Source of the DNA: an uncultured delta proteobacterium
Lineage (GTDB): Bacteria; Desulfobacterota; Syntrophia; Syntrophales; Smithellaceae
Assembly (NCBI GenBank): GCA_963753975.1
Contig: CAVWEH010000004.1
Span: forward strand, 192,001-256,000
Length of the DNA: 64,000 nucleotides
Reading direction: 5' to 3'
Shown here: positions 10,003 through 38,816 of the stretch, piece by piece
Numbering within the stretch: position 1 is the stretch's first letter
Layout: every line of letters begins with the position of its first letter
Translations under genes and position numbers: made by a program
Notes under the pieces: generated by a model
Database searches by the model: none
What the model saw: the letters and a program-made list of their open reading frames with translations, nothing else
Told to the model about the DNA's origin: nothing

Positions 10003-11004
10003 ATGAAATCTGGAACAGATGAAGCAAAGAAATTCTTAACAGCTAATCTGAAAGCAACCTCCTGGGAGATGCTCCCCATTAAAAAAGGTGGCTCCGACCG
10101 CGGATTTTTTCGGGTTTGCCTGCCAGATAAAACCAGTTTCATTTTTATGTGCTACGGCACGGAAGTGAAAGAAAATGCTCACTGGGCGGGTATCAACAAG
10201 TTTCTGTCCGGTCTTAAAATTTCCGTACCGCAAATTGTTGCGCAAGATATAAAACGACATTTTATTTTGATGGAAGATTTAGGTGATATTGATTTATGGT
10301 CGCAAAGGACTCTTCCCTGGAACAGAAGACGCAATTATTATTATCAGGTGCTCACACAAATTCGTCGTCTGCATTCCTTTAAACTTAAAAAAATCCCGGC
10401 GGATTTGAAATTGTCGCCAGGATACGGCCCAAAACTTTACCGCTGGGAGCATAATTATTTTCTGGAAAATCTCGTTGGGGAAGTTTGTAAGATAAAGCCT
10501 CCTTCATCTTTGCTTAAAGAATTAAAAAAAGAATTGGAATCATTCAGCACACGCCTGCAAAAAATAAAACCTTGTCTTATTCATCGCGATTTTCAATCGC
10601 AAAATATCATGATCAAAAATGATCTGCCGGTGCTGATTGATTTTCAGGGAATGCGTTTAGGAAATCTTTTTTACGATCTGGGATCGCTCATCTGCGACCC
10701 TTACGTTTCCTTTACAACTGAAGAAAGAATCGAGTTGATAAACTTTTATTATGAACTCATGAATTCCGCTTACAGTCGTGATGAATTTATTCAAAATTTC
10801 TGGATAGGCTCGGTGCAACGACTTTTGCAGGCGCTAGGAGCATATGGTTTTCTGGGGCTTAAAAAAAATAAACCGGATTTTCTGAAGCATGCTTACAACG
10901 GCATAAGAAATCTAATTCTCGCCACATCCAATACCGGAAACTTGCCTATTCTGCACGGACTATCGCAACGATGCGAGAGTATTTTGGCTGATCGGCAAAT
11001 ATAA
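10003..11004 (+). CDS. APH-fold phosphotransferase, AmgK-like anomeric MurNAc/GlcNAc kinase
   Basis: GGSDRGFFR, EDLGD, HRDFQSQNIM, IDFQG and YDLGSL. Confidence 0.8.
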   Translation: MKSGTDEAKKFLTANLKATSWEMLPIKKGGSDRGFFRVCLPDKTSFIFMCYGTEVKENAHWAGINKFLSGLKISVPQIVAQDIKRHFILMEDLGDIDLWSQRTLPWNRRRNYYYQVLTQIRRLHSFKLKKIPADLKLSPGYGPKLYRWEHNYFLENLVGEVCKIKPPSSLLKELKKELESFSTRLQKIKPCLIHRDFQSQNIMIKNDLPVLIDFQGMRLGNLFYDLGSLICDPYVSFTTEERIELINFYYELMNSAYSRDEFIQNFWIGSVQRLLQALGAYGFLGLKKNKPDFLKHAYNGIRNLILATSNTGNLPILHGLSQRCESILADRQI

Positions 11005-11015
11005 ATCCCCCTTTC

Positions 11016-11042
11016 CCGATTTATACAGTCTGTATAAATCGG
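11016..11042. repeat. Perfect 13+1+13 bp palindrome upstream of the cassette array
   Basis: CCGATTTATACAG T CTGTATAAATCGG; its core recurs at 11157-11173. Confidence 0.85.
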
Positions 11043-11074
11043 AAACGAAAAAACATAAATTAAGCTTTATAATA

Positions 11075-11103
11075 TTGATTTTATTTAATAATATTGGTAA
11101 TAT
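11075..11103 (+). promoter_or_regulatory. Candidate cassette promoter (Pc-like, sigma70)
   Basis: TTGATT-N17-TAATAT with a TG extended -10, upstream of the first cassette. Confidence 0.45.
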
Positions 11104-11156
11104 TTTAAGTATAAGAAAACGCTTTATACAGGAAGCAGTAGTCTGTGTTTGCAGAA

Positions 11157-11185
11157 TTATACAGACTGTATAAACATTGTTGGCC
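11157..11185 (+). other. attI-like integron recombination site
   Basis: TAAACATTG/TTGGCC resembles attI1 TAAAACAAAG/TTRRRY. The core GTTGGCC (11179-11185) nearly complements the GGGCAAC that ends cassette 1. Confidence 0.6.
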
Positions 11186-11192
11186 TTAAATT

Positions 11193-12110
11193 ATGAAATT
11201 TCCACAAAGACCTTCTACACATATTAAAGAAACTGATTCGTGGAAAATTCTACAGAATTCAGTTCCTTCTGAATGGCTGCTTAGAGGAGTCACCGAACGA
11301 GATTATGGTGTTGACTGCTATCTTGAAATTGTAGGCCGCGATGGTTCTGTCAGAGGTGATCTAATATCAATCCAACTGAAAGGTACAGAAAGTCTCGATT
11401 GGAAGCAAAATGAAAAACAAAACAGACAAGAAGCAAAATTTCCTGGAATAAAAATTGAAACAATTAACTATTGGATGAATCTTGCAGTTCCGGTTTTTTT
11501 ATGCGTTGCTGAAACATCGACAAAGAAACTGTATTTTGCCCCAATAAAAAACCAAGTGAGAAATCAATATAAAAAATATAAGCTCCAGCAAAGTTTAAGT
11601 TTTGCATTAAGCACCAAACATATTCTTGATCACAACCAAGGATTATTAAATTTCATAATCTGCTACATTCAAGAAAAAAATTTCAAAGAGCTAACTGAAT
11701 TATCAAGGCTTCTCTTAATTCACTTACCTCAATATTATGAGTTCATAATAGGAAACCAGAAGTTAGATCCATTTTTAGGAGTAGAGCCAAATGATGAATT
11801 AATGTTTACCCATATTTACATGACATTGCATAGCCTTTGCAATGTGTTGGCAATAGACTGGAACATCAAATGGCTATCAGACATTTATGATGAAGACAAT
11901 AAAACGTGGAAAGATTCTTATAATAATCTACATAATTTAACTTTTACCCAAATTATACCTCAGCTTAACAAGAAACTCGTAGTAGTTCTGGAAAGTATAA
12001 AGAAAATTATCACTGAGTTTCAAAAGGAATTCTGGGAAACAAAAGAATATATTATTTATCGGAAAGCAAAAGAGATGGACGTATCAAACCTTGACTCATT
12101 GATATATTGA
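11193..12110 (+). CDS. Cassette 1: DUF4365-like PD-(D/E)XK nuclease-domain protein
   Basis: N-terminal DYGVDCYLEI...IQLKGT motif. Confidence 0.65.
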   Translation: MKFPQRPSTHIKETDSWKILQNSVPSEWLLRGVTERDYGVDCYLEIVGRDGSVRGDLISIQLKGTESLDWKQNEKQNRQEAKFPGIKIETINYWMNLAVPVFLCVAETSTKKLYFAPIKNQVRNQYKKYKLQQSLSFALSTKHILDHNQGLLNFIICYIQEKNFKELTELSRLLLIHLPQYYEFIIGNQKLDPFLGVEPNDELMFTHIYMTLHSLCNVLAIDWNIKWLSDIYDEDNKTWKDSYNNLHNLTFTQIIPQLNKKLVVVLESIKKIITEFQKEFWETKEYIIYRKAKEMDVSNLDSLIY

Positions 12111-12116
12111 ACAAAG

Positions 12117-12179
12117 GGGCAACCATCCGCTGGTGTGTGATACGCAAAAAGCCGCGCACCCCACAGCGGCATTTTGGCT
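12117..12179 (+). mobile_element. attC site 1 (degenerate R')
   Basis: GGGCAAC...CCGCTG/CAGCGG stem...TTTGGCT; the G of the GTT core reads T. Confidence 0.7.
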
Positions 12180-12193
12180 TAAGGAATTAATCA

Positions 12194-13144
12194 ATGAACG
12201 GACATCATGTAATTGAAGATCTGATTATTTTAAAGAATAACCATATTGTTAAAGATCCTAATTTTACCAAAGGCATTGACGTATTAATTAATTTAATCAA
12301 AAATGCTCAACATTTTTTCTTAGGTTGTTTTCAAGAGTTCTTCCCGCTTTTAGAAAATGTATTTGATAATAAATCTAGGGTATTTTTTGGCCCCTGCGCT
12401 GAACACGTTCGTCTACCATATAATATTTGCTGGTTTGAGTTTCAAAATATTGTCCAAGACATACCCATTACTGAGGATGTTCCCAAACGGGGAATTCTAG
12501 TAAAAGAGATGGACAAAGATCTAATATGGGTGTGGACTGTGAATTGCCCAAAATTCTATAAGAAGTGGATAGTAAGTCCGCAGCAGTATTTTATTACTAT
12601 AGGCAAAACTATTTCTGAACACGAAATGATGCGAGATATGGTAACTTCTTCACTTAAAAAGAGCGGTGCATCAGATTCCGTTATTCAATCATATTACGAA
12701 TCGAATATTTGGCCACTACCCATGATCAACGGTATGGATGTAAAGATGTCGCAGGGATTGATGAAAGATGATTATAGGGATTTAGTTGCTTTGAATGCAG
12801 CTTTGATGTTGTTAAATTGTAAAAATATTGTATCTGAAGATAATCTCCCAGCTGAAAAGCTTAATAGGAAAAGACATAAGAATGGCAAACAAGAATTATT
12901 TACATATAAAACTTTGAAATTAGTACTTCCTACGGAATTAAAAAATATTGGCAAGGAATATCTCCCCTCTGGAGCGAAAGTAAGAATTCACTTATGCCGC
13001 GGTCATTTTAAGAACTATACAAAAGAATCACCACTTTTTGGCAGATATACCGGTTTATATTGGTGGGAACCTCATATTAGAGGAGATAAAAACGAGGGGA
13101 TAGTGATTAAAGACTATAAAATTACAACCACATCAGCAAATTAA
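12194..13144 (+). CDS. Cassette 2: hypothetical protein with C-terminal HLCRGHF...WWEPHIRG motif
   Basis: 316-aa ORF with AAGGA RBS, flanked by attC sites. Confidence 0.7.
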   Translation: MNGHHVIEDLIILKNNHIVKDPNFTKGIDVLINLIKNAQHFFLGCFQEFFPLLENVFDNKSRVFFGPCAEHVRLPYNICWFEFQNIVQDIPITEDVPKRGILVKEMDKDLIWVWTVNCPKFYKKWIVSPQQYFITIGKTISEHEMMRDMVTSSLKKSGASDSVIQSYYESNIWPLPMINGMDVKMSQGLMKDDYRDLVALNAALMLLNCKNIVSEDNLPAEKLNRKRHKNGKQELFTYKTLKLVLPTELKNIGKEYLPSGAKVRIHLCRGHFKNYTKESPLFGRYTGLYWWEPHIRGDKNEGIVIKDYKITTTSAN

Positions 13145-13199
13145 AGCCAACCCGTCGCTACAGCCAATCGCTACGCTCCGGCTGATTTTTTCGTTATGT
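13145..13199 (+). mobile_element. attC site 2
   Basis: AGCCAAC...CAGCC/GGCTG stem...GTTATGT; AAGCCAA complements the TTGGCTT at the cassette start. Confidence 0.85.
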
Positions 13200-13213
13200 T
13201 TGGAAATATCAAA

Positions 13214-13852
13214 ATGAAAGCATTCATAAGCCCAAATTACACTCAAGAAAAATTTGATAAACCAACAATCGACGATCTTATAGATGTTTTTAAGGATCGA
13301 ATATTAAATTGGCTATTTGAACCTGTTAAAAAGTTAATAATTGAGAAAGATGGATACTTTGGCGCTGTTTGTCTTCTTTTAACTTATTTTGAAGGAATCT
13401 GGTCGTACATCAGCGGTATCGATAGTGAAGGAAAATCGAAGAAATATTTTATTAAAGCTTTTATAGACGTATTTAGTTCATCTGGCCATAATCCCGTCCT
13501 GTTAGAACGGGTTGCGTTAATACTATATGAAGATGGCCGCTGTGGGTTCTTCCACGATGGCATGTCAAGAGCACGTATCTTTTTGGCGGAGCTTAACAAG
13601 ATAGATATGTTAATTACACTTCCCAAAACACCTGACGGAAAGGTCGACGTTGATGGGCAAATTAAATCCATTATGATAGATCCACGATATTTCATGGCAG
13701 CAATCGAAAGGCATTTTATTGATTATTTGCTTTGTCTTAGCAAGCCAAATGAAAAAGTAAAACGTGATAACTTTTTAAAAATCGCCAAGGAAAAATGGAT
13801 TTATGAATATGAAGGTGTTGTTATCGGTCTTAATAAAGATGGTTCAATGTAG
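13214..13852 (+). CDS. Cassette 3: putative HEPN-like protein
   Basis: Helical-looking protein with an Rx4H motif (RCGFFH). Start may instead be 13196, inside the attC core. Confidence 0.5.
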   Translation: MKAFISPNYTQEKFDKPTIDDLIDVFKDRILNWLFEPVKKLIIEKDGYFGAVCLLLTYFEGIWSYISGIDSEGKSKKYFIKAFIDVFSSSGHNPVLLERVALILYEDGRCGFFHDGMSRARIFLAELNKIDMLITLPKTPDGKVDVDGQIKSIMIDPRYFMAAIERHFIDYLLCLSKPNEKVKRDNFLKIAKEKWIYEYEGVVIGLNKDGSM

Positions 13853-13885
13853 AAATAACAAGATTAATACAGTCGATCGTTATGC
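13853..13885 (+). mobile_element. attC site 3, internally deleted
   Basis: AAATAAC-AAGATTAATACAGTCGATC-GTTATGC. The left half matches attC4/5 and the right arm is missing. Confidence 0.7.
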
Positions 13886-13967
13886 AATAAATATATACCA
13901 ATGATAACCATATATATACCCATATTAATATATTGCAATATTTACATGATTTTGGCATAGTAAGCCC

Positions 13968-14255
13968 ATGAAAAAAGTGATCTTCGAATGGGATGAGGAA
14001 AAGAATAAAGAAAATCAATCAAAGCATGGCGTTTCTTTTATAACTGCACAGCAGGCTTTTCTTGATCCCCACCGCGTCATCGCGGAAGACATTACCCATG
14101 GCACTGAAGAAAATCGGTATTATTGTATGGGTCATGTAGGCGAAGGTATTTTAACGGTTAGGTTTACGTATCGTGGTAACGTAATTCGTATCTATGGCGC
14201 AGGCTATTGGAGAAAAGGAAGGAAAATCTATGAAGACCAAAATAAAATATACTGA
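13968..14255 (+). CDS. Cassette 4: BrnT-family toxin
   Basis: FEWDEEKNKENQSKHGVSF...EENRY...LTVRFTYR...IRI. Confidence 0.9.
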   Translation: MKKVIFEWDEEKNKENQSKHGVSFITAQQAFLDPHRVIAEDITHGTEENRYYCMGHVGEGILTVRFTYRGNVIRIYGAGYWRKGRKIYEDQNKIY

Positions 14256-14470
14256 AGAACCTATGGGCAATTTGAGAGTTGTAAAAGACTTTCTCCCACC
14301 CCCTGATCAAGTTGGTGCTGAAGGAAGACAATGTGAAAGTTACATTATCTTTAAAGAAATCCAGCATCACCTTTTTCAAAAAAGAAGCAAAGACGCAGAA
14401 GACTTCATATCAGAAAATGATAAGAGAAGTAGTAGATTGGTACGCTTCACATTATCAGAAGAGCGCGTAA
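14230..14470 (+). pseudogene. BrnA/CopG-like antitoxin with +1 frameshift near 14310
   Basis: MKTKIKYTEEP...DFLPPPDQ continues in another frame as LVLKEDNVKVTLSLKKSSITFFK...YQKMIREVVDWYASHYQKSA*. Confidence 0.8.
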
Positions 14471-14520
14471 CAAAATCAATACAGTCGATTGCCGCGCTCC
14501 TGCTGCTTTTTTCGTTATAC
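14465..14520 (+). mobile_element. attC site 4
   Basis: GCGTAAC...CAGTCGAT...GCTG...GTTATAC; the AAC box overlaps the antitoxin stop codon. Confidence 0.8.
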
Positions 14521-14543
14521 AACGAGAAATCGGAGGCATTAAT

Positions 14544-15488
14544 ATGCAATTTGGAAAAATAAAGAAACTATATCCAAGGGAGATTTGGCCAAATGAGGCG
14601 AAGAATTTTACACCATGGCTTGCTGATAACATCACTGCTCTTGGTGAGGCCCTTGGAATGGATTTAGAACGGACAGATACTGAAGCAGACGTTGGTGATT
14701 TCGCATTGGATTTGTTAGCGAAGGATTTAGGCACCGGACACACTGTAATAATTGAAAATCAACTGACACAAACGGATCACGACCATCTTGGTAAATTGTT
14801 GACATATGCCGCAGGATTCAATGCTTCGACGGTGGTATGGGTTTCTGAGGTGATACGTGATGAGCACAGGCAAGCGCTTGAATGGCTAAATCAGAGGACA
14901 GACGAAGAAACTCAATTTTTTGGCGTCATCATTGAAGTCATACAAATAGATGATTCAAAACCCGCCTATAGTTTTAAGCCAGTCGTTGTACCAAACGAAT
15001 GGCGGAAATCGAAAAAAAGGCAAGCTAACAATACTGTTTCTGAGAAAGGTGAATTGTATCGTAATTACTTCCAGTCACTCATTGATGAACTGAGAGAAAA
15101 ATATAAGTTTACAAATGCAAGAATCGGCCAACCGCAAAACTGGTATTCCTTTTCCTCTGGCGTCTCAGGTATTTCTTTTGGTGCTGTTTTTGTACAAGGT
15201 AGCAAGACACGCACGGAACTCTATATAGATGTTGGTGAAGTTGAAAAGAACAAAGCATTATTTGATTGGCTATACGAGCAAAGAGAAGAAATAAACTCCA
15301 AATTTGGTAAAGAAATTGAGTGGGAACGTCTAGATGATAAAAGGGCTTCGCGCATTGCGATCTACAGAGACGGGACAATTCAAAGCAATGAAGAGGAACT
15401 AGTACAAATTAAAACTTGGCATATTGAAAATCTTATCATCTTCAAGAAAATTTTTACGCCTTTGATCAAGAAATATGGCTGGAAATGA
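14544..15488 (+). CDS. Cassette 5: DUF4268-domain protein with N-terminal endonuclease-like domain
   Basis: EAKNFTPWL, DLLAKD...IIENQL, DHDHLGKLLTYAAG; C-terminal WERLDDKRASRI. Confidence 0.8.
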   Translation: MQFGKIKKLYPREIWPNEAKNFTPWLADNITALGEALGMDLERTDTEADVGDFALDLLAKDLGTGHTVIIENQLTQTDHDHLGKLLTYAAGFNASTVVWVSEVIRDEHRQALEWLNQRTDEETQFFGVIIEVIQIDDSKPAYSFKPVVVPNEWRKSKKRQANNTVSEKGELYRNYFQSLIDELREKYKFTNARIGQPQNWYSFSSGVSGISFGAVFVQGSKTRTELYIDVGEVEKNKALFDWLYEQREEINSKFGKEIEWERLDDKRASRIAIYRDGTIQSNEEELVQIKTWHIENLIIFKKIFTPLIKKYGWK

Positions 15489-15498
15489 AAGGATAACC

Positions 15499-15554
15499 GT
15501 GTAACAAGATGAATCCAGCCGATCGTTTACTCCGGCTGATTTTTTCGGTTAGGG
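15499..15554 (+). mobile_element. attC site 5
   Basis: GTGTAAC...AATCCAGCCG/CGGCTGATT with an extrahelical base...GTTAGGG. Confidence 0.9.
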
Positions 15555-15564
15555 CCAAAGAATA

Positions 15565-16266
15565 ATGGGAAAACACCGAATTTATTGCAACTCGTGCAAA
15601 AATAATACATGGCACGAGGTAGCAGCAAATCACGACCAAAAAAGGGAAGATAATCTTTGGGGCTACCAGCAGAATTTTGAGGCCGAGATATTACGTTGTT
15701 GCGGGTGCGATCAAATCTCATTTAGGTTGGTCAAGCATCCGTTTGAATTCCAAGACAAAAATGACAAACCAGAGGAAGAAATATATCCGGAACGCGGATT
15801 TAAGCAACGAGAGCAGAGATATTTTCTCCATCTTCCAACAGAAGTCCGTAATTTATACAATGAAACATTATCAGCACACGATAGAAATTTGATTCTACTG
15901 TCTACTGTAGGCCTTCGGGCGCTTATCGAGGCAATTGTGGCCAATAAACTGAGCAAAAAAGACTACGGAGAAACACTCGAATCAAAAATAAATGCATTAG
16001 CAAAATATTTCAATGAATCTACAATCAATACGTTACATGAGTTTCGCACAATGGGGAATAAAGCAATCCATGCCCAGCTTGCGCCTGACCCACTTGATAT
16101 ACATAGAGCGTTATATGTTGTGGAGGGTATTATGGAGTTCTTCTATGGCATAGATGAACATGTATATACTTATAAAACCTTCAAAAATAAAAAAAAGAAT
16201 AAAAAAAGCCCTAACAAAAAAATCCGGCGGACGGGCAATAAGCATGCTACGATTTCAAAATCGTAG
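15565..16266 (+). CDS. Cassette 6: DUF4145 (HEPN) protein with N-terminal zinc ribbon
   Basis: CNSC...CCGC; LRALIEAI; RTMGNKAIH HEPN motif. The C-terminus reads through into the attC. Confidence 0.75.
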   Translation: MGKHRIYCNSCKNNTWHEVAANHDQKREDNLWGYQQNFEAEILRCCGCDQISFRLVKHPFEFQDKNDKPEEEIYPERGFKQREQRYFLHLPTEVRNLYNETLSAHDRNLILLSTVGLRALIEAIVANKLSKKDYGETLESKINALAKYFNESTINTLHEFRTMGNKAIHAQLAPDPLDIHRALYVVEGIMEFFYGIDEHVYTYKTFKNKKKNKKSPNKKIRRTGNKHATISKS

Positions 16267-16298
16267 GTTGTCCTCGCTGCTGATTTATATTGTTCCCC
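16209..16298 (+). mobile_element. attC site 6 (last)
   Basis: GCCCTAAC is the exact complement of the cassette-opening GTTAGGGC; inner CTACGATTT/AAATCGTAG stem; ends GTTCCCC. Confidence 0.8.
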
Positions 16299-16463
16299 CG
16301 CCGCATACGGGTTCCATTACACCACTCGCGTTTCCGCGGTTACATACTTTTTCAGCATATCAAATAGATTATCTGTTTGAAAAACTGCCTCTACGATAAA
16401 GGCATTGCAAGCACTTAAGCGATATGTTAGACAAATCACCGATTATTAACTCCGGAGTCCGCT

Positions 16464-19049
16464 ATGAACATTAAGTACGATCCCCATCAGATTGAAGAAA
16501 AATGGCAGAAGAAGTGGGGCAAAGAAAAAACCTTTAAAGTCACGGAAGATGCACAGAAAGAAAAATATTATCTGCTGGAAATGTTCCCCTATCCTTCCGG
16601 TAAAATTCATATAGGGCACGTGCGTAATTATACCATCGGTGATGTCGTCGCCCGCTACAAACGCATGAAAGGTTATAATGTTTTACATCCGATGGGGTGG
16701 GATGCCTTCGGTCTGCCCGCGGAAAACGCTGCTATTGAACATAAAATTCACCCTTCCCAGTGGACAAATGACAATATCGCTCACATGAAGAAGCAGCTCA
16801 AAAGAATGGGCTTCAGCTACGACTGGGATAGGGAAATATCGACTTGCGAACCGCAGTATTATCGCTGGGAACAGTTATATTTTCTGTGGATGTATGAAAA
16901 AGGCCTGGCCTACAAGAAACGTTCCACTGTCAATTATTGCAGCAAGTGTGAAACAGTTCTGGCGAACGAGCAGGTCGAAGGCGGCTTATGCTGGCGCTGC
17001 GGCACGGAAGTAAATGAAAAAACATTGGATCAATGGTTTTTCCAGATTACCGCCTACATCGAGGAGCTCTTGGACTACTGTGATAAGCTTCCCGGCTGGC
17101 CGGAAAAAGTTCTTACCATGCAGAAAAACTGGATCGGAAAAAGTTACGGCTGCGAAGTGGATTTCCCGCTTATCGGTTCCAATAAAGTTATCAAAATATT
17201 CACCACGCGCCAGGACACTCTTTTCGGCGCAACCTTTATGCTCATTGCCGCGGAACTGCCGCTGGTTTCCGAATTATCCAAGGGTAAAGCCATCGAAAAA
17301 GACGTCCAGCAATTTGTGGAAAAAGTAAAAAAGCAAGACCGGCTGATGCGCACTTCCGAGTATTATGAAAAGGAAGGAATTTTTCTCGAGGCCTATTGCG
17401 AGAATCCTTTGACCGGAAAAAAGATGCCCATCTACGCCACTAATTTTGTATTAGCCGATTATGGCACCGGCTGTGTTATGGCCGTTCCCACTCACGATCA
17501 GCGCGACTTTGAATTCGCGAAGAAATTCAATCTGCCCCTGATTGTCGTTATTCAGCCGAAAGGCAAGAAACTTGACGCGGAAAAAATGACCGAAGCTTAC
17601 ACGGAAGAAGGAATTTTAGTCAATTCCGGCAAATTCAACGGCCTAGAAAATCTTAAAGCTTTAGAATCCATTGCCGATTATTTAGAGTCGATCGGCCGCG
17701 GCAAACGAATGATCCAGTACCGCCTGCGTGATTGGGGAATTTCGCGTCAGCGCTACTGGGGCGCGCCCATTCCCATGGTTAACTGTAAAAAATGCGGCAT
17801 CGTTCCGGTTCGCGAATCTGATTTGCCCATCGTGCTGCCGGGTGATGTTGTATTAAGTGGTGAAGGCGGATCACCGCTCGCGGCCCTAAAAGAGTTTGTT
17901 CAAACAACTTGCCCCCAATGCGGCGGTGCGGCCGAAAGAGAAACGGATACGATGGATACCTTTGTGGAATCCTCCTGGTATTTCGATCGCTTTTGCAGCC
18001 CAGATGCTGATAAGAAACCAGGCCTGGACCGCAAAAAACTGGATTACTGGATGCCGGTTGATCAGTACATCGGCGGCGTGGAACACGCCATCATGCATTT
18101 GCTCTACGCCCGTTTTTATACTAAGATGCTGCGCGATTTTGGTGTTATCGGTGTGGACGAACCTTTCTTAAACTTACTCACTCAGGGAATGGTTTGCAAA
18201 GAAACGACGAAGTGCCCGGAGCATGGATACCTTTTCCCCGAGCAGGCGGCGGAAGGAAAATGCCACATCTGCCAAAAAGAAGTAATTATCGGCAAGACGG
18301 AAAAGATGTCCAAATCGCTGAAGAATGTTATCGATCCGGACTATCTTATCGAAACTTACGGCGCCGATACCGCCCGCATTTTTTGCCTTTTTGCAGCTCC
18401 TCCGGAAAAGGATTTGGAATGGAGCGATCAGGGAGTGGAAGGGTCATTCCGTTTCTTGAACCGCCTGTGGCGCATATTTGCTGAATATTTAGACGATATC
18501 AAGAAGGTAAAGCCGCTTTTCGGAAACCATGATTTAGAAGGTGAACTGAAGAATCTGCGGCGCAAAACTCATCAAACCATCCACAAAGTAACCATTGACA
18601 TCGAAGACCGTTTCCATTTCAATACAGCTATCAGCGCGGTTATGGAATTGGTTAATGCCATCTATCAGATAAAACGTCCCGGCAAAGATGATAAAATTGC
18701 CCTGGCTGTCGTCCGGGAAGCACTGGAATCAGCCGTCATCCTGCTTGCTCCAATTGTACCGCACATCGCCGAAGAACTCTGGCAAAAGCTCGGCTATAAA
18801 AGAGATGTTTCCAATGTTTCGTGGCCGGAATATGATAAGACCATCGCGAGCGAAGAAGAAATAACGGTTGTCATTCAGATTAACGGCAAACTGCGCAGCC
18901 GGATGACCGTGCCTGTCGATCACGATGCGGAAAAAATAAAGGCGGCCGCACTAGCGGATGAAAAAATCAAGGACATGATTAAAGAAGCAAAAGTCTTGAA
19001 AGTTATTTACGTAACTAATAAACTGGTCAATATTGTAATTGCCCAATAA
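16464..19049 (+). CDS. leuS: Leucine--tRNA ligase
   Basis: MFPYPSG..HIGH and KMSKS motifs; 861 aa. Confidence 0.98.
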
Positions 19050-22194: not shown

Positions 22195-22749
22195 ATGAAC
22201 GGCAGCGATAATACAATTGTGGATAGCGACTTTAGTTTTTCCGATGCTATTGCAGGAACAAACGCACCCCTGAAAATAGTCGACGACTTATCACTGGTAG
22301 ATGTCTGCTACTATTCTTTTGACGGCAGGCGTCATCTGGGACAGATTATCATCAACAAGGAATTGGAGGATGATGTCTGCGAAATTTTCTTTTTAATCGA
22401 AAAAATAAAGTTTCCCGTAGGCTCTGTTATTCCCATTGCCGCCTATAGCTGGCAAGACAATGAATCTATGGCCGACAATAACACCTCCAGCTTTAATTTT
22501 CGCATAATCGAAGGAACGACAAAATTATCACTCCACTCCTTCGGACGCGCCTTAGATATCAATCCGGTGCAAAATCCCGTAATTTATCCTCACGGCCTTA
22601 TAGCTCCTGCGGGCGCAGTTTACGATCCCCAACGGAAGGGAACTTTTGCGCTGACAAATCCTATCGTCCAGAAATTTTTAAAACGCGGCTGGCACTGGGG
22701 CGGCAATTTCGATCAGCCGAAAGACTATCACCATTTTGAAAAGCCCTGA
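22195..22749 (+). CDS. M15-family metallopeptidase
   Basis: SLHSFGRALDINP, WGG and DYHHFE. Confidence 0.85.
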   Translation: MNGSDNTIVDSDFSFSDAIAGTNAPLKIVDDLSLVDVCYYSFDGRRHLGQIIINKELEDDVCEIFFLIEKIKFPVGSVIPIAAYSWQDNESMADNNTSSFNFRIIEGTTKLSLHSFGRALDINPVQNPVIYPHGLIAPAGAVYDPQRKGTFALTNPIVQKFLKRGWHWGGNFDQPKDYHHFEKP

Positions 22750-22751
22750 TA

Positions 22752-22870
22752 CCAATTCCAAATCAAAGCGCTATCTGTGTTGGCAGCGTCGTCGGCTTCC
22801 TCAACGTATGTACAATACGCTTCGTCGCCTCCTCCTTGCCGCCTTGATATCATCTTAGATTTGAAATCGG
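22752..22870. repeat. MITE-like element family A, copy 1 (119 bp)
   Basis: Inverted homologue of 38069-38187 with degenerate 17-bp TIRs. Confidence 0.85.
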
Positions 22871-23629
22871 CCGAGCGACAATAATGCCGGTAAATTTTTT
22901 ATTTTGTTTTAAATAAGTGGCAAGAGTTTTTTTCGATATTACTACACCGCCTTCCTTGCTGGAGGCATGTAAAAGATGCAAATTTTTCCCTTGCCAGAGG
23001 GCAAAGCCAACATGAGCGATATCCAATCCTTCTTTTTCAGTTACAAAGGCAATGATGTCACCATTTTTAATTTTTTCTTTCCGTCGGCTTATTTCCATTC
23101 CAATCACACAGAAAATTCTGCGGGAAATATTTTTCTCCAGAATCAACATTTTATTAAATTCATTTTCGCTTTTTAATGCCGGATAAGACTCACGGTGAGT
23201 CGTCATATAATTTATTTTTTTACGCTTAGGTTTACCGCCCAAACCCTTCGAGATGTCTGCGACAATTCTTTTCTTTTCGTTGTCCCATAGCCAATCGGTG
23301 AAGTAATGCAGACGAGAGGAATAACCGGCAATAACACCATGCCTGTACCTAATAGACTTTAATTTGCGCCGAAATTCCCGTGGTAAAATTTTTCCTACGG
23401 CGAAGCAATGAGAGAGCGCCAGGACGGTTTCCAAAAAAGTAAAACAATCAAATTGAGTGAAGTTGACGATTAGCTTTTCTTTGCCTCTTGTCTCCAAGGT
23501 TCCCACTTTGTAAGAAGCATCTAGAAACTCCCGGCCAATTTCTATTAGCAAATCGCCAAAGGACAAATCTTTCCCTTCCAGCCGCCGTTTAAGGCTATTA
23601 AAATTAAATTGCTTCATTAAAATATTCAT
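22850..23629 (-). CDS. DUF1460 NlpC/P60-superfamily amidase-like protein
   Basis: FDCFTFLE, RLHYFTDW, GLDIAHVG and LLHASS. Confidence 0.8.
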   Translation of the reverse strand: MNILMKQFNFNSLKRRLEGKDLSFGDLLIEIGREFLDASYKVGTLETRGKEKLIVNFTQFDCFTFLETVLALSHCFAVGKILPREFRRKLKSIRYRHGVIAGYSSRLHYFTDWLWDNEKKRIVADISKGLGGKPKRKKINYMTTHRESYPALKSENEFNKMLILEKNISRRIFCVIGMEISRRKEKIKNGDIIAFVTEKEGLDIAHVGFALWQGKNLHLLHASSKEGGVVISKKTLATYLKQNKKFTGIIVARPISNLR

Positions 23630-35394: not shown

Positions 35395-35677
35395 AAATTA
35401 TTCTTATTGCGCGCCCTTTGATTGCGCACACGGTCAAAGGATAACGAGGCGGCAGTGAAACTCGAATTTCAGGAACGCAGTGAACTGGAATTCGTTAGCT
35501 GAACTGTCCCGCATCAGCGGCGGCACGGACGAAGCTCCCCGGCATGCGCCGGGCAGGCATCCGGCGTATTACTAACGTGTGACCTTCAGGTTATACGTTG
35601 AAAAAGCTGACGACGACGCCAACAAAGTTAGCCAAAGACCGGGGGCGCGTCCCGCAGGGGAGCGCATAGCAAATTTA
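35395..35677. repeat. Composite MITE-like element (family A shell with nested family B module)
   Basis: Long imperfect terminal inverted repeats; shares GAGGCGGC and TACGTTGA...CGACGCCAACAAAG with 38069-38187. Confidence 0.65.
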
Positions 35678-37978: not shown

Positions 37979-38068
37979 AATAAAATCCTTTATTGAGCAA
38001 AATCAAAACTACAGAAATTCTTATCATAAGAAAAAAAACATGACAAGAAGATATCCAGAGGACTAATA

Positions 38069-38187
38069 CCAATTCTAAATCAAAGATGATATCGAGGCGG
38101 CTAGGAGGAGGCGACGAGACGTATTGTACATACGTTGAGGAAACCGACAACGACGCCAACAAAGATAGCGCTTTGATTTAGAATTGG
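38069..38187. repeat. MITE-like element family A, copy 2 (119 bp)
   Basis: Perfect 17-bp TIR CCAATTCTAAATCAAAG / CTTTGATTTAGAATTGG. Confidence 0.88.
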
Positions 38188-38189
38188 AA

Positions 38190-38816
38190 TCAGGATAAAA
38201 AGGCATAAGCAACGAATTGACCATCGTGGCTTAAGCTGATGTCCATATCTGTTTTTTTGCCGTCAATATAAACATGCGGCGGTTGAAGCTCACTTTTATC
38301 TTGTTCTCTGTTGATTTTGATGTCACTGAAATTTAGACGGAAAAAATCGGCGAGATGTAGGGCAAGACATTTTCGTAAAAACAAAGAAGGATCTGCTTTC
38401 CCGTCATTTCCTTCCTCAGGTAAAATTTCGACGTTGCAGATTAAATTATCTAATGCGGCAAGACAATCAGAGCCCACACAATGAACGTAACGGAAATCGG
38501 AAAAAAGGCGAACATAAACCGCTTCCGCGTCCGGAATCTTAACCTCACCGTCTAAACACGCCGATTCGGATTGCTGGAGATTTACCGTCCACCGGCACGG
38601 CAAAAAAGCAGCATCAGCACACTTTTTTTTTATGATCTTATAGGCTGTTTCTTTACAAGACCAAAAGGACCACAGCGCCTTATCGGAATTTTCCGCGTTT
38701 CGTACAAAATCAATTTCAGCAGCGGTGAGGATTTTCTTTAGAAAGCGCGAATCCCTGCTTTTCCCTGCGTTCACCGGCTCTTTCAAATCCACGATATCGT
38801 TCCCTACGTAGGGCAA
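38190..38816 (-). CDS. 4'-phosphopantetheinyl transferase
   Basis: GNDIVD, WSCKETAYK and SLSHDG. Confidence 0.85.
   Translation of the reverse strand: MPYVGNDIVDLKEPVNAGKSRDSRFLKKILTAAEIDFVRNAENSDKALWSFWSCKETAYKIIKKKCADAAFLPCRWTVNLQQSESACLDGEVKIPDAEAVYVRLFSDFRYVHCVGSDCLAALDNLICNVEILPEEGNDGKADPSLFLRKCLALHLADFFRLNFSDIKINREQDKSELQPPHVYIDGKKTDMDISLSHDGQFVAYAFLS

Follow-up and report, generated by a model that had tools for sequence, protein, structure and literature searches.

Between an amgK-like kinase gene and leuS, the 64-kb window (the whole stretch of DNA analysed) carries six integron cassettes on the forward strand, spanning positions 11180-16292 behind an integron platform that lacks an integrase gene (Table 1). 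The best NCBIfam match of the left-flank kinase is AmgK (E 2e-21, below the cut-off). The GC content of the cassettes is 0.34-0.40, compared with approximately 0.40-0.50 in the flanking 1-kb bins.

Table 1 Features of the amgK-leuS locus, in window coordinates.
Feature	Position	Strand	Description
amgK-like kinase gene	10003-11004	+	Left chromosomal flank, after a murU-like gene; Pfam APH
Integrase-less integron platform	11016-11185	+	Distal palindrome, probable Pc, accessory box, attI
Palindrome	11016-11042		Perfect, 27 nt, two inverted TTTATAC boxes; fold z -5.6
Candidate Pc promoter	11075-11103	+	TTGATT, 17 nt, extended TAATAT; putative, read by eye
attI core	11157-11185	+	Crossover between G11179 and T11180
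Cassette 1	11180-12173	+	DUF4365 nuclease-like ORF 11193-12110; attC1 12117-12179
Cassette 2	12174-13193	+	AcrVA2/FinQ-like ORF 12194-13144; attC2 13145-13199
Cassette 3	13194-13879	+	Helical ORF 13196(13214)-13852; attC3 13853-13885, truncated
Cassette 4	13880-14514	+	brnT 13968-14255, brnA from 14230; attC4 14465-14520
Cassette 5	14515-15548	+	Nuclease-like N-terminus and DUF4268, ORF 14544-15488; attC5 15499-15554
Cassette 6	15549-16292	+	Cys-rich N-terminus and DUF4145, ORF 15565-16266; attC6 16209-16298, by eye
Platform 3′ terminal element	16293-16372	+	Common to five congeners; related to DNA after the unloaded attI or last attC in complete integrons
leuS	16464-19049	+	Right chromosomal flank; Pfam

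In a relative, G021, the DNA beginning immediately 3′ of the stop codon of a co-oriented intI aligns with the platform over 169 nt at 82.8% identity. A homologous platform also adjoins intI in G063, and the likeness among platforms stops at the GTT of attI. By this homology the array's attI and probable Pc are inherited from a co-oriented integron, and recombination of the candidate attI by IntI is predicted from its likeness to platforms beside intI. The attI motif occurs in 48 of 116 family genomes, and a reversed control pattern in 3. In complete integrons the 27-nt palindrome lies directly 3′ of the intI stop, with a compensatory change in G063, and it is probably an IntI-binding site. Lacking a T tract, the palindrome is unlike a terminator, and it does not resemble the canonical SOS box consensus. 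The TTGA of the candidate Pc is invariant in six aligned platforms; a promoter scanner called no site, the candidate falling below its threshold. The first cassettes are probably driven by Pc. At the other end, the array's right flank corresponds to the terminal element found in complete integrons. The left end of the platform was searched for a GWT junction, as expected from insertion of a composite cassette, and none was found. The amgK gene ends 11 nt before the platform with no intI remnant between them, and the locus thus falls outside the complete (inverted-integrase) integrons.

The crossover points fall at G11179 (attI), 12173, G13193, G13879, G14514, G15548 and G16292, the crossover G of attC1 at 12173 being mutated to T. 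The six pairs of core sequences quoted in the preliminary description are all present, and its statement that the 3′ box of each cassette complements the 5′ core of the same cassette is borne out: R″ and the core of its own cassette are complementary at 22 of 30 variable positions, the highest value among all 720 assignments (mean 10), versus 10 of 30 for pairing with the downstream R′. A covariance model trained solely on 32 attC sites from other genomes matched attC2 (E 1.7e-13), attC4 (E 1.6e-8) and attC5 (E 1.9e-10) in the 64 kb, plus one weak match (E 0.12). The model missed attC1 (63 nt) and attC6 (90 nt), which were assigned by eye, and attC3 is a truncated half site of 33 nt. That each cassette ends in an attC-like palindrome accordingly stands for three sites by the model and for six by core complementarity, with the reservation that the attC1 crossover is mutated and attC3 truncated. 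Free-energy folding of the six bottom strands was not better than that of shuffles (z -1.2 to +1.0). A bottom-strand L stem with an extrahelical base in the attC2/4/5 family, tested on a structure named by the analyst, shows two-sided changes at 6 of 8 pairs among the 32 outside sites, a result reached by 0 of 500 shuffles; attC1 and attC6 were judged by eye only, and attC3 is truncated. A structural attC scanner recovered 1 of the 6 sites, and an Rfam search of 10900-16600 gave no match.

The locus therefore combines at least two clustered attC sites with no intI within 4-10 kb, and its earlier designation as a CALIN holds. Because the segment 11016-11185 is an attI platform homologous to the DNA after a relative's intI stop codon, the array is an attI-bearing CALIN, that is, a genuine row of six mobile cassettes behind an integron docking site without its own recombinase gene.

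The preliminary description regarded the cargo as a compact defence library of two nuclease-like proteins, two HEPN-like proteins, a BrnT/A pair and one unknown. The protein of cassette 1 is nuclease-like through DUF4365 (Pfam, E 5e-18). That of cassette 5 has a Pfam DUF4268 match and a nuclease motif recognized by eye; it matches the PADLOC model PDC-S11 over its full length (residues 2-310, E 1.4e-116), which gives a predicted activity only. The PDC entries of PADLOC are candidate systems. Cassette 6 encodes a DUF4145 protein by Pfam (28.4 bits, cut-off 23.1), also matched by phrog_1305 (E 4e-17). Cassette 3, with no Pfam or NCBIfam match and nothing significant by Foldseek against the PDB, has HEPN chains as its best fold matches at a Z of 5.3, within the range for common helical bundles. 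A motif, R115-x4-H120, is conserved in 80 homologs, and the protein is possibly a HEPN. Cassette 4 carries a BrnT toxin gene (PF04365, E 2e-21, 76.8 bits, cut-off 34.5), whereas its antitoxin partner brnA carries a frameshift, an additional base near 14308 that is absent from 15 of 15 homologs and may be an assembly error. A defence role of the cassettes may be proposed from their sequences.

The cassette described as unknown probably belongs to the AcrVA2/FinQ family of proteins in conflicts with mobile genetic elements (MGE), in which a target mRNA decays in a translation-dependent manner. The protein of cassette 2 scores 0.98 in the atlas against clusters with PF26125 in 13-29% of their members, and its top match in a wide fold search is AcrVA2 (7ci1) with a moderate Z of 6.3, an rmsd of 5.5 and 199 aligned residues, the next match having a Z of 3.6. 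Identity in the structural alignment is approximately 10%, and neither Foldseek nor profile searches of the PDB returned a significant match. The motif H266-L-C268-R269-G-H271 is conserved in 106 homologs; the HxR..H motif of AcrVA2 (H286, R288, H291) was equated with these residues by spacing only. Matches in phage records span only the C-terminal third. PDB sequence searches with cassettes 2, 3 and 5 found nothing.

Insertion of the cassettes one at a time, as first proposed, is supported by the own-end pairing and by single recurrence elsewhere with matching ends. Cassettes 2, 3 and 4 recur singly in other arrays with boundaries between G and TT: cassette 2 follows different attC sites in two further genomes, the cassette 3 homolog in G076 closes with a full attC, and the cassette 4 unit is present in many genomes. 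Cassette 5 has a homolog that does not share its boundaries, and no recurrence of cassette 6 in other arrays was found. Copies of cassettes 1 and 2 that are ~99% identical exist elsewhere, and for cassette 1 these lie in metagenome contigs with different neighbours at both crossover points. One contig joins cassette 1 exactly at G11179 (1 difference in 387, preceded by 27 unlike letters) and another stops at 12175 (7 differences in 534, followed by 99 unlike letters). Among the matches listed, 32 of ~1,190 metagenome pieces, those with amgK or leuS differ by ~5-14%; with this share viewed, a conspecific strain with near-identical flanks is possible. Each metagenome run covered a small share of the locus and none spanned it.

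The reported lack of a tyrosine recombinase in the 64 kb is confirmed, with a best tblastn E of 0.65 and all five PF00589 matches of the genome lying outside the window. Furthermore, a search of the whole assembly (95% complete, 6 contigs) found no intact IntI. Among the five genomes of the clade the intI remnants reach at most 44-45 codons, in G000 and G011. The suggestion of an IntI acting in trans thus survives as the best reading of how the array was loaded, while the genome-wide search requires any such enzyme to be intermittent or unassembled.

The gene content of the locus is not fixed across relatives, which was the point of the comparison first suggested. Five congeners with attI between amgK and leuS form a clade (support 96/98) and share no cassette ORF, and no cassette DNA beyond attC repeats; 7 of 20 relatives examined have an empty gap of 69-157 bp. 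The present genome has seven attI sites. A motif match, hence not a random sample, gathered 96 attI-like sites in 43 genomes, 84 of them without an adjacent intI. A co-oriented family attC occurs within 2.5 kb at 28 of these 84 and an inverted one at none; within the 1.2-2.5 kb covered, 56 are without a family attC, and the GTT is missing at 9. In 11 groups with homologous upstream genes the first cassette is shared in 0 of 63 cross-genome pairs, by a test that was positive for 7 pairs elsewhere. Few upstream non-coding modules are shared between non-orthologous satellites. Of the 12 genomes in which a cognate intI adjoins a site, eight have 1-4 spare sites besides. Intact co-oriented IntI enzymes occur in G009 and G063 (73-76% apart). 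The comparison used one genome per species, so the turnover covers long times, during which intI could have been present and then lost separately.

These results lead us to lean slightly towards loading in trans of an old satellite docking site. A co-oriented integron, with intI, Pc, attI and cassettes on one strand, would have entered the space between amgK and leuS, by copying or by relocation, in the ancestor of the five-species clade. Its intI would then have been lost from the 5′ side, everything from the intI stop codon onward being kept, and the surviving attI filled cassette by cassette by IntI in trans, rather than through RecA. The enzyme could be the cognate IntI encoded at the main locus of the family, next to a LexA-like gene, or, alternatively, one whose presence varies with strains or mobile DNA. 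Spare docking sites in this bacterium and its relatives appear to keep gaining genes from a recombinase encoded elsewhere. The broader proposal, on which we are evenly divided, is a lineage with a distributed integron: up to seven intI-less Pc-attI sites per genome, some at orthologous positions across species and genera, would capture cassettes via one cognate co-oriented IntI present in some strains or at some times, and their cargo would include an AcrVA2/FinQ-like gene serving the host against mobile elements.

A different history, which we consider unlikely, is that each lineage inherited a complete integron that filled and then lost intI, separately or early, so that the present differences reflect differential loss from one long ancestral array with no later entry. 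The mutated attC1, truncated attC3 and frameshifted brnA are signs of decay in keeping with such a relic, as are the shrunken platforms of G010 and C4:123k and the graded series of intI remnants across the family; in Xanthomonas, intI inactivation accompanies stable arrays (10.1101/2025.06.18.660453). However, G000, G005 and G010 have one and the same amgK-palindrome junction, which makes the loss of intI ancestral, and yet no cassette is common to them. The near-identical copies of cassettes 1 and 2 elsewhere, with cassette 1 among other neighbours, also argue against a frozen array. Exchange of cargo by homologous recombination or gene conversion from the arrays of a complete integron, with no IntI acting at the amgK-leuS site, appears rather improbable. 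The homology proposed for it would come from the platform (~170 bp), the attC repeats (~56 bp) or the flanking amgK and leuS. Platforms and attC repeats are indeed 75-97% alike between loci, and the platform at the same amgK site is of type A in three genomes and of type B in two, so the platform itself must have been replaced. Against exchange, the last attC of G010 is joined at a second GTT, ~25 nt into the common right flank, which we infer to be a typical signature of an IntI secondary site. In addition, no array is duplicated between the G000 loci, and the cargo proteins of the other G000 arrays have no match in the amgK arrays.

An ordinary split integron, with an intact IntI in an assembly gap or on an unbinned contig, would be in keeping with the incompleteness of the assembly and with the intI genes of relatives, often found on short contigs or at contig ends. 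We regard it as very unlikely, given that the usual intI locus is assembled in this genome and decayed to ~10 codons and that four further clade members (66-98% complete) likewise yielded no intact IntI. Birth of the array de novo at a chance attG site is conceivable inasmuch as GWT sites throughout the genome receive cassettes through IntI (10.1101/2022.09.11.507474), but is largely refuted by homology to real integron platforms on both sides, in the upstream 170 bp and in the downstream terminal element. Loading of the satellite site in trans remains our preferred reading, and with IntI, attI and attC all in hand it is directly testable in a standard conjugation assay.

CALINs, their mobilisation in trans and defence cassettes are already published, and as a CALIN with defence-like cargo the array is ordinary. 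The likeness to BRiCs, integron cassettes for defence against phages (10.1101/2024.07.02.601719), lies in cassettes resembling nucleases, HEPN proteins and TA pairs, here predicted from sequence; the portion of that text available does not mention DUF4145, DUF4365, DUF4268 or HEPN. The product of cassette 2 resembles the AcrVA2/FinQ family (10.1101/2022.11.29.518452; 7ci1) in size, top structural match, Trp 80 (W79 in AcrVA2) and a C-terminal H-x4-H. It differs in its location in a chromosomal integron cassette and in having, by spacing, Cys at the position of R288, which is required in AcrVA2, with Arg one position later. A literature search on integrons in Syntrophales returned nothing relevant, and one on multiple attI in integrons, a weak test of absence, found none. 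As in the inverted-integrase integrons of the Treponema type (PMC3607928), intI in the relatives is transcribed toward attI, sharing the cassettes' direction; that paper gives one attI per integron, whereas here up to seven intI-less copies occur per genome and intI is absent. The Xanthomonas CALINs away from ilvD (10.1101/2025.06.18.660453) likewise occupy conserved secondary loci, and the main intI locus is often inactivated. In that genus, stable arrays accompany intI loss, and the accessible text does not mention attI at secondary loci, whereas here attI is present and cargo is unshared between species. CALINs are defined by several attC-ended cassettes with no intI nearby; approximately half lie in genomes without IntI, and they are described as mobilisable in trans (PMC4889954; PMC11389934). 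The definition, as given in the available parts of these sources, ignores attI, whereas the amgK-leuS array retains attI along with a probable Pc and the 3′ terminal element, in a genome with seven attI sites including this one, which suggests that attI-blind tools miss many live insertion sites. CALINs outnumber complete integrons, and 95% have no recognisable intI pseudogene nearby (PMC4889954). Here the origin is readable from the sequence, the platform corresponding exactly to the DNA 3′ of a co-oriented intI, with graded intI remnants in relatives. If the distributed integron is real, its sites would be natural evidence of in-trans cassette capture, not just excision, at CALINs.

The six cassette units of the preliminary description were found where it placed them, and its proposal that the 3' box of each complements its own 5' core was upheld: pairing of each R'' with its own core matches 22 of 30 variable positions, the top score among 720 assignments. 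A covariance model trained on 32 attC sites from other genomes, in which the L stem shows two-sided changes at 6 of 8 pairs, recovered attC2, attC4 and attC5 (each E ≤ 1e-8) and no further significant match in the window. The attC-like nature of the boundaries is thereby supported by the model at these three sites; attC1 and attC6, members of other attC families, were identified by inspection only, and free folding reached significance for none of the six. When 301 genomes of the order were searched at the DNA level, two candidates being scored in each, the matches spanned single cassettes. Copies of cassette 2 in two genomes start exactly at 12174 and are preceded by different attC sites, and the BrnTA cassette begins at its own G|TT in many genomes. 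The array is a real feature and a CALIN, a group of clustered attC sites that has no integrase.

Cassettes of the array and further features (G, genome, G000 being the one studied; C, contig; L, fetched locus)
Feature	Position	Content
Cassette 1	crossovers 11179, 12173	DUF4365
Cassette 2	crossovers 12173, 13193	
Cassette 3	crossovers 13193, 13879	
Cassette 4	crossovers 13879, 14514	BrnT
Cassette 5	crossovers 14514, 15548	DUF4268; PADLOC PDC-S11, E 1e-116
Cassette 6	crossovers 15548, 16292	DUF4145
Weak attC-model match	window 23237-23285	E 0.12, within a gene; probably chance
MITE-like repeat, ~130 bp, terminal inverted repeats	window ~22746-22866, 35593-35632, 38066-38206	scattered over G000; also in array right flank of G005, G011, G013
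Xer-like recombinase gene	G000:C2:602494-603313	broken across two frames (real or an assembly error); 179-aa open frame also in G013
L105, main-locus array	G000:C4, 157301-159421	downstream of LexA-like S24 gene; array, then 61% GC methyltransferase-like ORF and DinB-like ORF (by eye)
L106, type-B attI leader	G000:C5, ~410800-410880	broken by REP/MITE-like insertion
L075, attC left half fused straight onto attI core	G080:C5, 788033-788053, minus strand	inside an array whose start is another attI
L014, amgK site in another genus	G021:C18, 21373-21685	duplicated amgK 3' piece, then type-A attI, one ORF, leuS

Parts of the array are damaged. The attC1 crossover base is T, and G precedes the copies of cassette 2 elsewhere. 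attC3 is a 33-nt half site, and the cassette 3 homolog in a relative (G076) closes with a full site; this would reflect either loss of the sequence between two TCGTT repeats or recombination at an internal GTT. The brnA gene carries a single extra base near 14308 relative to 15 of 15 homologs, which may be an assembly error.

The interval between amgK and cassette 1 is a 170-bp block comprising a 27-nt palindrome, a probable promoter and an attI site. This block shares 82.8% identity with the stretch directly 3' of the intI stop codon in G021 and can also be aligned with its G063 counterpart; similarity ends at GTT. The sequence 3' of the last attC resembles the DNA after the unloaded attI of three relatives (G012, G058 and G065), as well as that after the last attC of the complete G009 integron. 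Thus, the locus has the two ends of an integron platform.

The relatives' intI genes follow a LexA-like S24 gene in at least 11 genomes and lie elsewhere in G021 and G083; the G009 IntI reaches 464 bits, where the TIGR02249 cut-off is 265. The IntI that had been suggested to serve the array in trans did not emerge from the genome studied, as no match above the IntI cut-off was found in its assembly (2.43 Mb, 6 contigs, 95% complete). Its five tyrosine-recombinase matches are two Xer-like, two phage-like and one 44-codon intI tail (C4:123k) that runs into another attI. About 10 intI codons are left at its LexA-like locus, followed by attI and three model-detected attC sites. Altogether, this genome holds 7 attI-like sites and 16 family attC matches at 8 loci, with both kinds at 5 loci.

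The amgK regions of 20 relatives show attI and an array before leuS in 4, a 69-157-bp gap in 7 and other insertions in 5 (that of G021 includes attI); leuS was not seen in 4. The four array carriers and the genome studied form one clade (96/98) with amgK identities of 76-84%. As the preliminary description would have it, array content is not fixed, the five congeners having no amgK-site cassette in common. The platform is of type A in three of them and of type B in two. Compared with window 11005-11185, G011 and G013 (L010, L011) have a type-B attI leader yet the same right flank, which indicates a past replacement of the platform as such. The G005 array (L012) is filled by one unusually large unit of ~4.9 kb, whose three ORFs look by eye like glycosyltransferases and a carbamoyltransferase. 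L014 is possibly the same site, arisen independently or ancestral.

Across the family, 48 of 116 genomes have the attI motif and 3 of 116 a reversed control pattern; a few of the matches are unrelated. Loci fetched for motif matches yielded 96 scored sites in 43 genomes, a motif-selected set in which related genomes are not independent; an intI stretch of 400 nt or more adjoins 12 of the sites, and the other 84 have no such neighbour. The latter keep GTT in 75 cases and have an attC within 2.5 kb that is co-oriented in 28 and inverted in 0. Within 11 groups defined by homologous upstream genes, 0 of 63 pairs have the first 500 nt of cargo in common (0 of 42 once a group in which the main locus is merged with a second one is set aside). 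Eight of 12 genomes with an adjacent intI additionally hold 1-4 spare attI sites, and intI remnants form a series: full length with a stop, 128 nt, 105 nt, 45 nt and complete absence. Two more orthologous intI-less attI loci, in 6 genomes (L108, L053, L057, L058, L153, L154) and in 5 genomes of two genera (L054, L055, L129, L146, L152), have a different first gene in every genome. G055:C1 bears two attI 1.2 kb apart, and attC lies immediately upstream in 4 of 75 satellites (attI sites without adjacent intI). Array-internal attI sites could seed new platforms.

The reading that is somewhat favored is that an ancestral satellite platform at the amgK-leuS site would have been loaded with cassettes in trans. 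The array might instead be a frozen relic, which is rather unlikely. Contigs from four public metagenome runs bear on its age (32 of about 1,190 pieces listed). Among the pieces listed, one aligns with cassette 1 beginning at 11179 (1 difference in 387; the letters upstream are unlike), and another stops at 12175 with 7 differences in 534, then 99 unlike letters; cassette 2 pieces differ by 0-4 letters, amgK and leuS pieces by ~5-14%. A further piece, 90% identical, extends from amgK across attI and is divergent beyond. These sequence comparisons suggest recent movement of the two newest cassettes, long after intI left the site. Exchange of whole arrays by homologous recombination is judged slightly less probable still than a relic. 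An intI that is present but unassembled is improbable, and no intact IntI was found in the other clade genomes (66-98% complete). Growth at a chance attG site is very improbable, since both platform ends are present.

A defence role for the cargo is plausible by analogy to the BRiCs, phage-defence integron cassettes (available text of 10.1101/2024.07.02.601719). Cassette 5 matches PDC-S11, a PADLOC candidate model. The cassette 3 protein conserves an R-x4-H motif, and its similarity to the HEPN fold is weak. By language-model features, AcrVA2-like clusters are the closest to the cassette 2 protein, and AcrVA2 is the top fold match of its structure model (pLDDT 86.6) out of 48,161 chains compared, with Z 6.3 and rmsd 5.5 against Z 3.6 for the runner-up; the closest protein relative of cassette 2, 93% identical, has the source label Anaerolineaceae. 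AcrVA2 and FinQ are described in the accessible part of 10.1101/2022.11.29.518452 as having roles in conflicts between mobile elements.

A limited literature search found no print description of several satellites bearing attI whose cargo has turned over in full. Mobilization in trans is stated in the available portions of PMC9668308, PMC11389934 and 10.1101/2025.06.18.660453, the last of which further describes Xanthomonas CALINs at secondary loci that are conserved. The relatives' intI genes are oriented toward attI, as in the Treponema-type layout outlined in the accessible text of PMC3607928.
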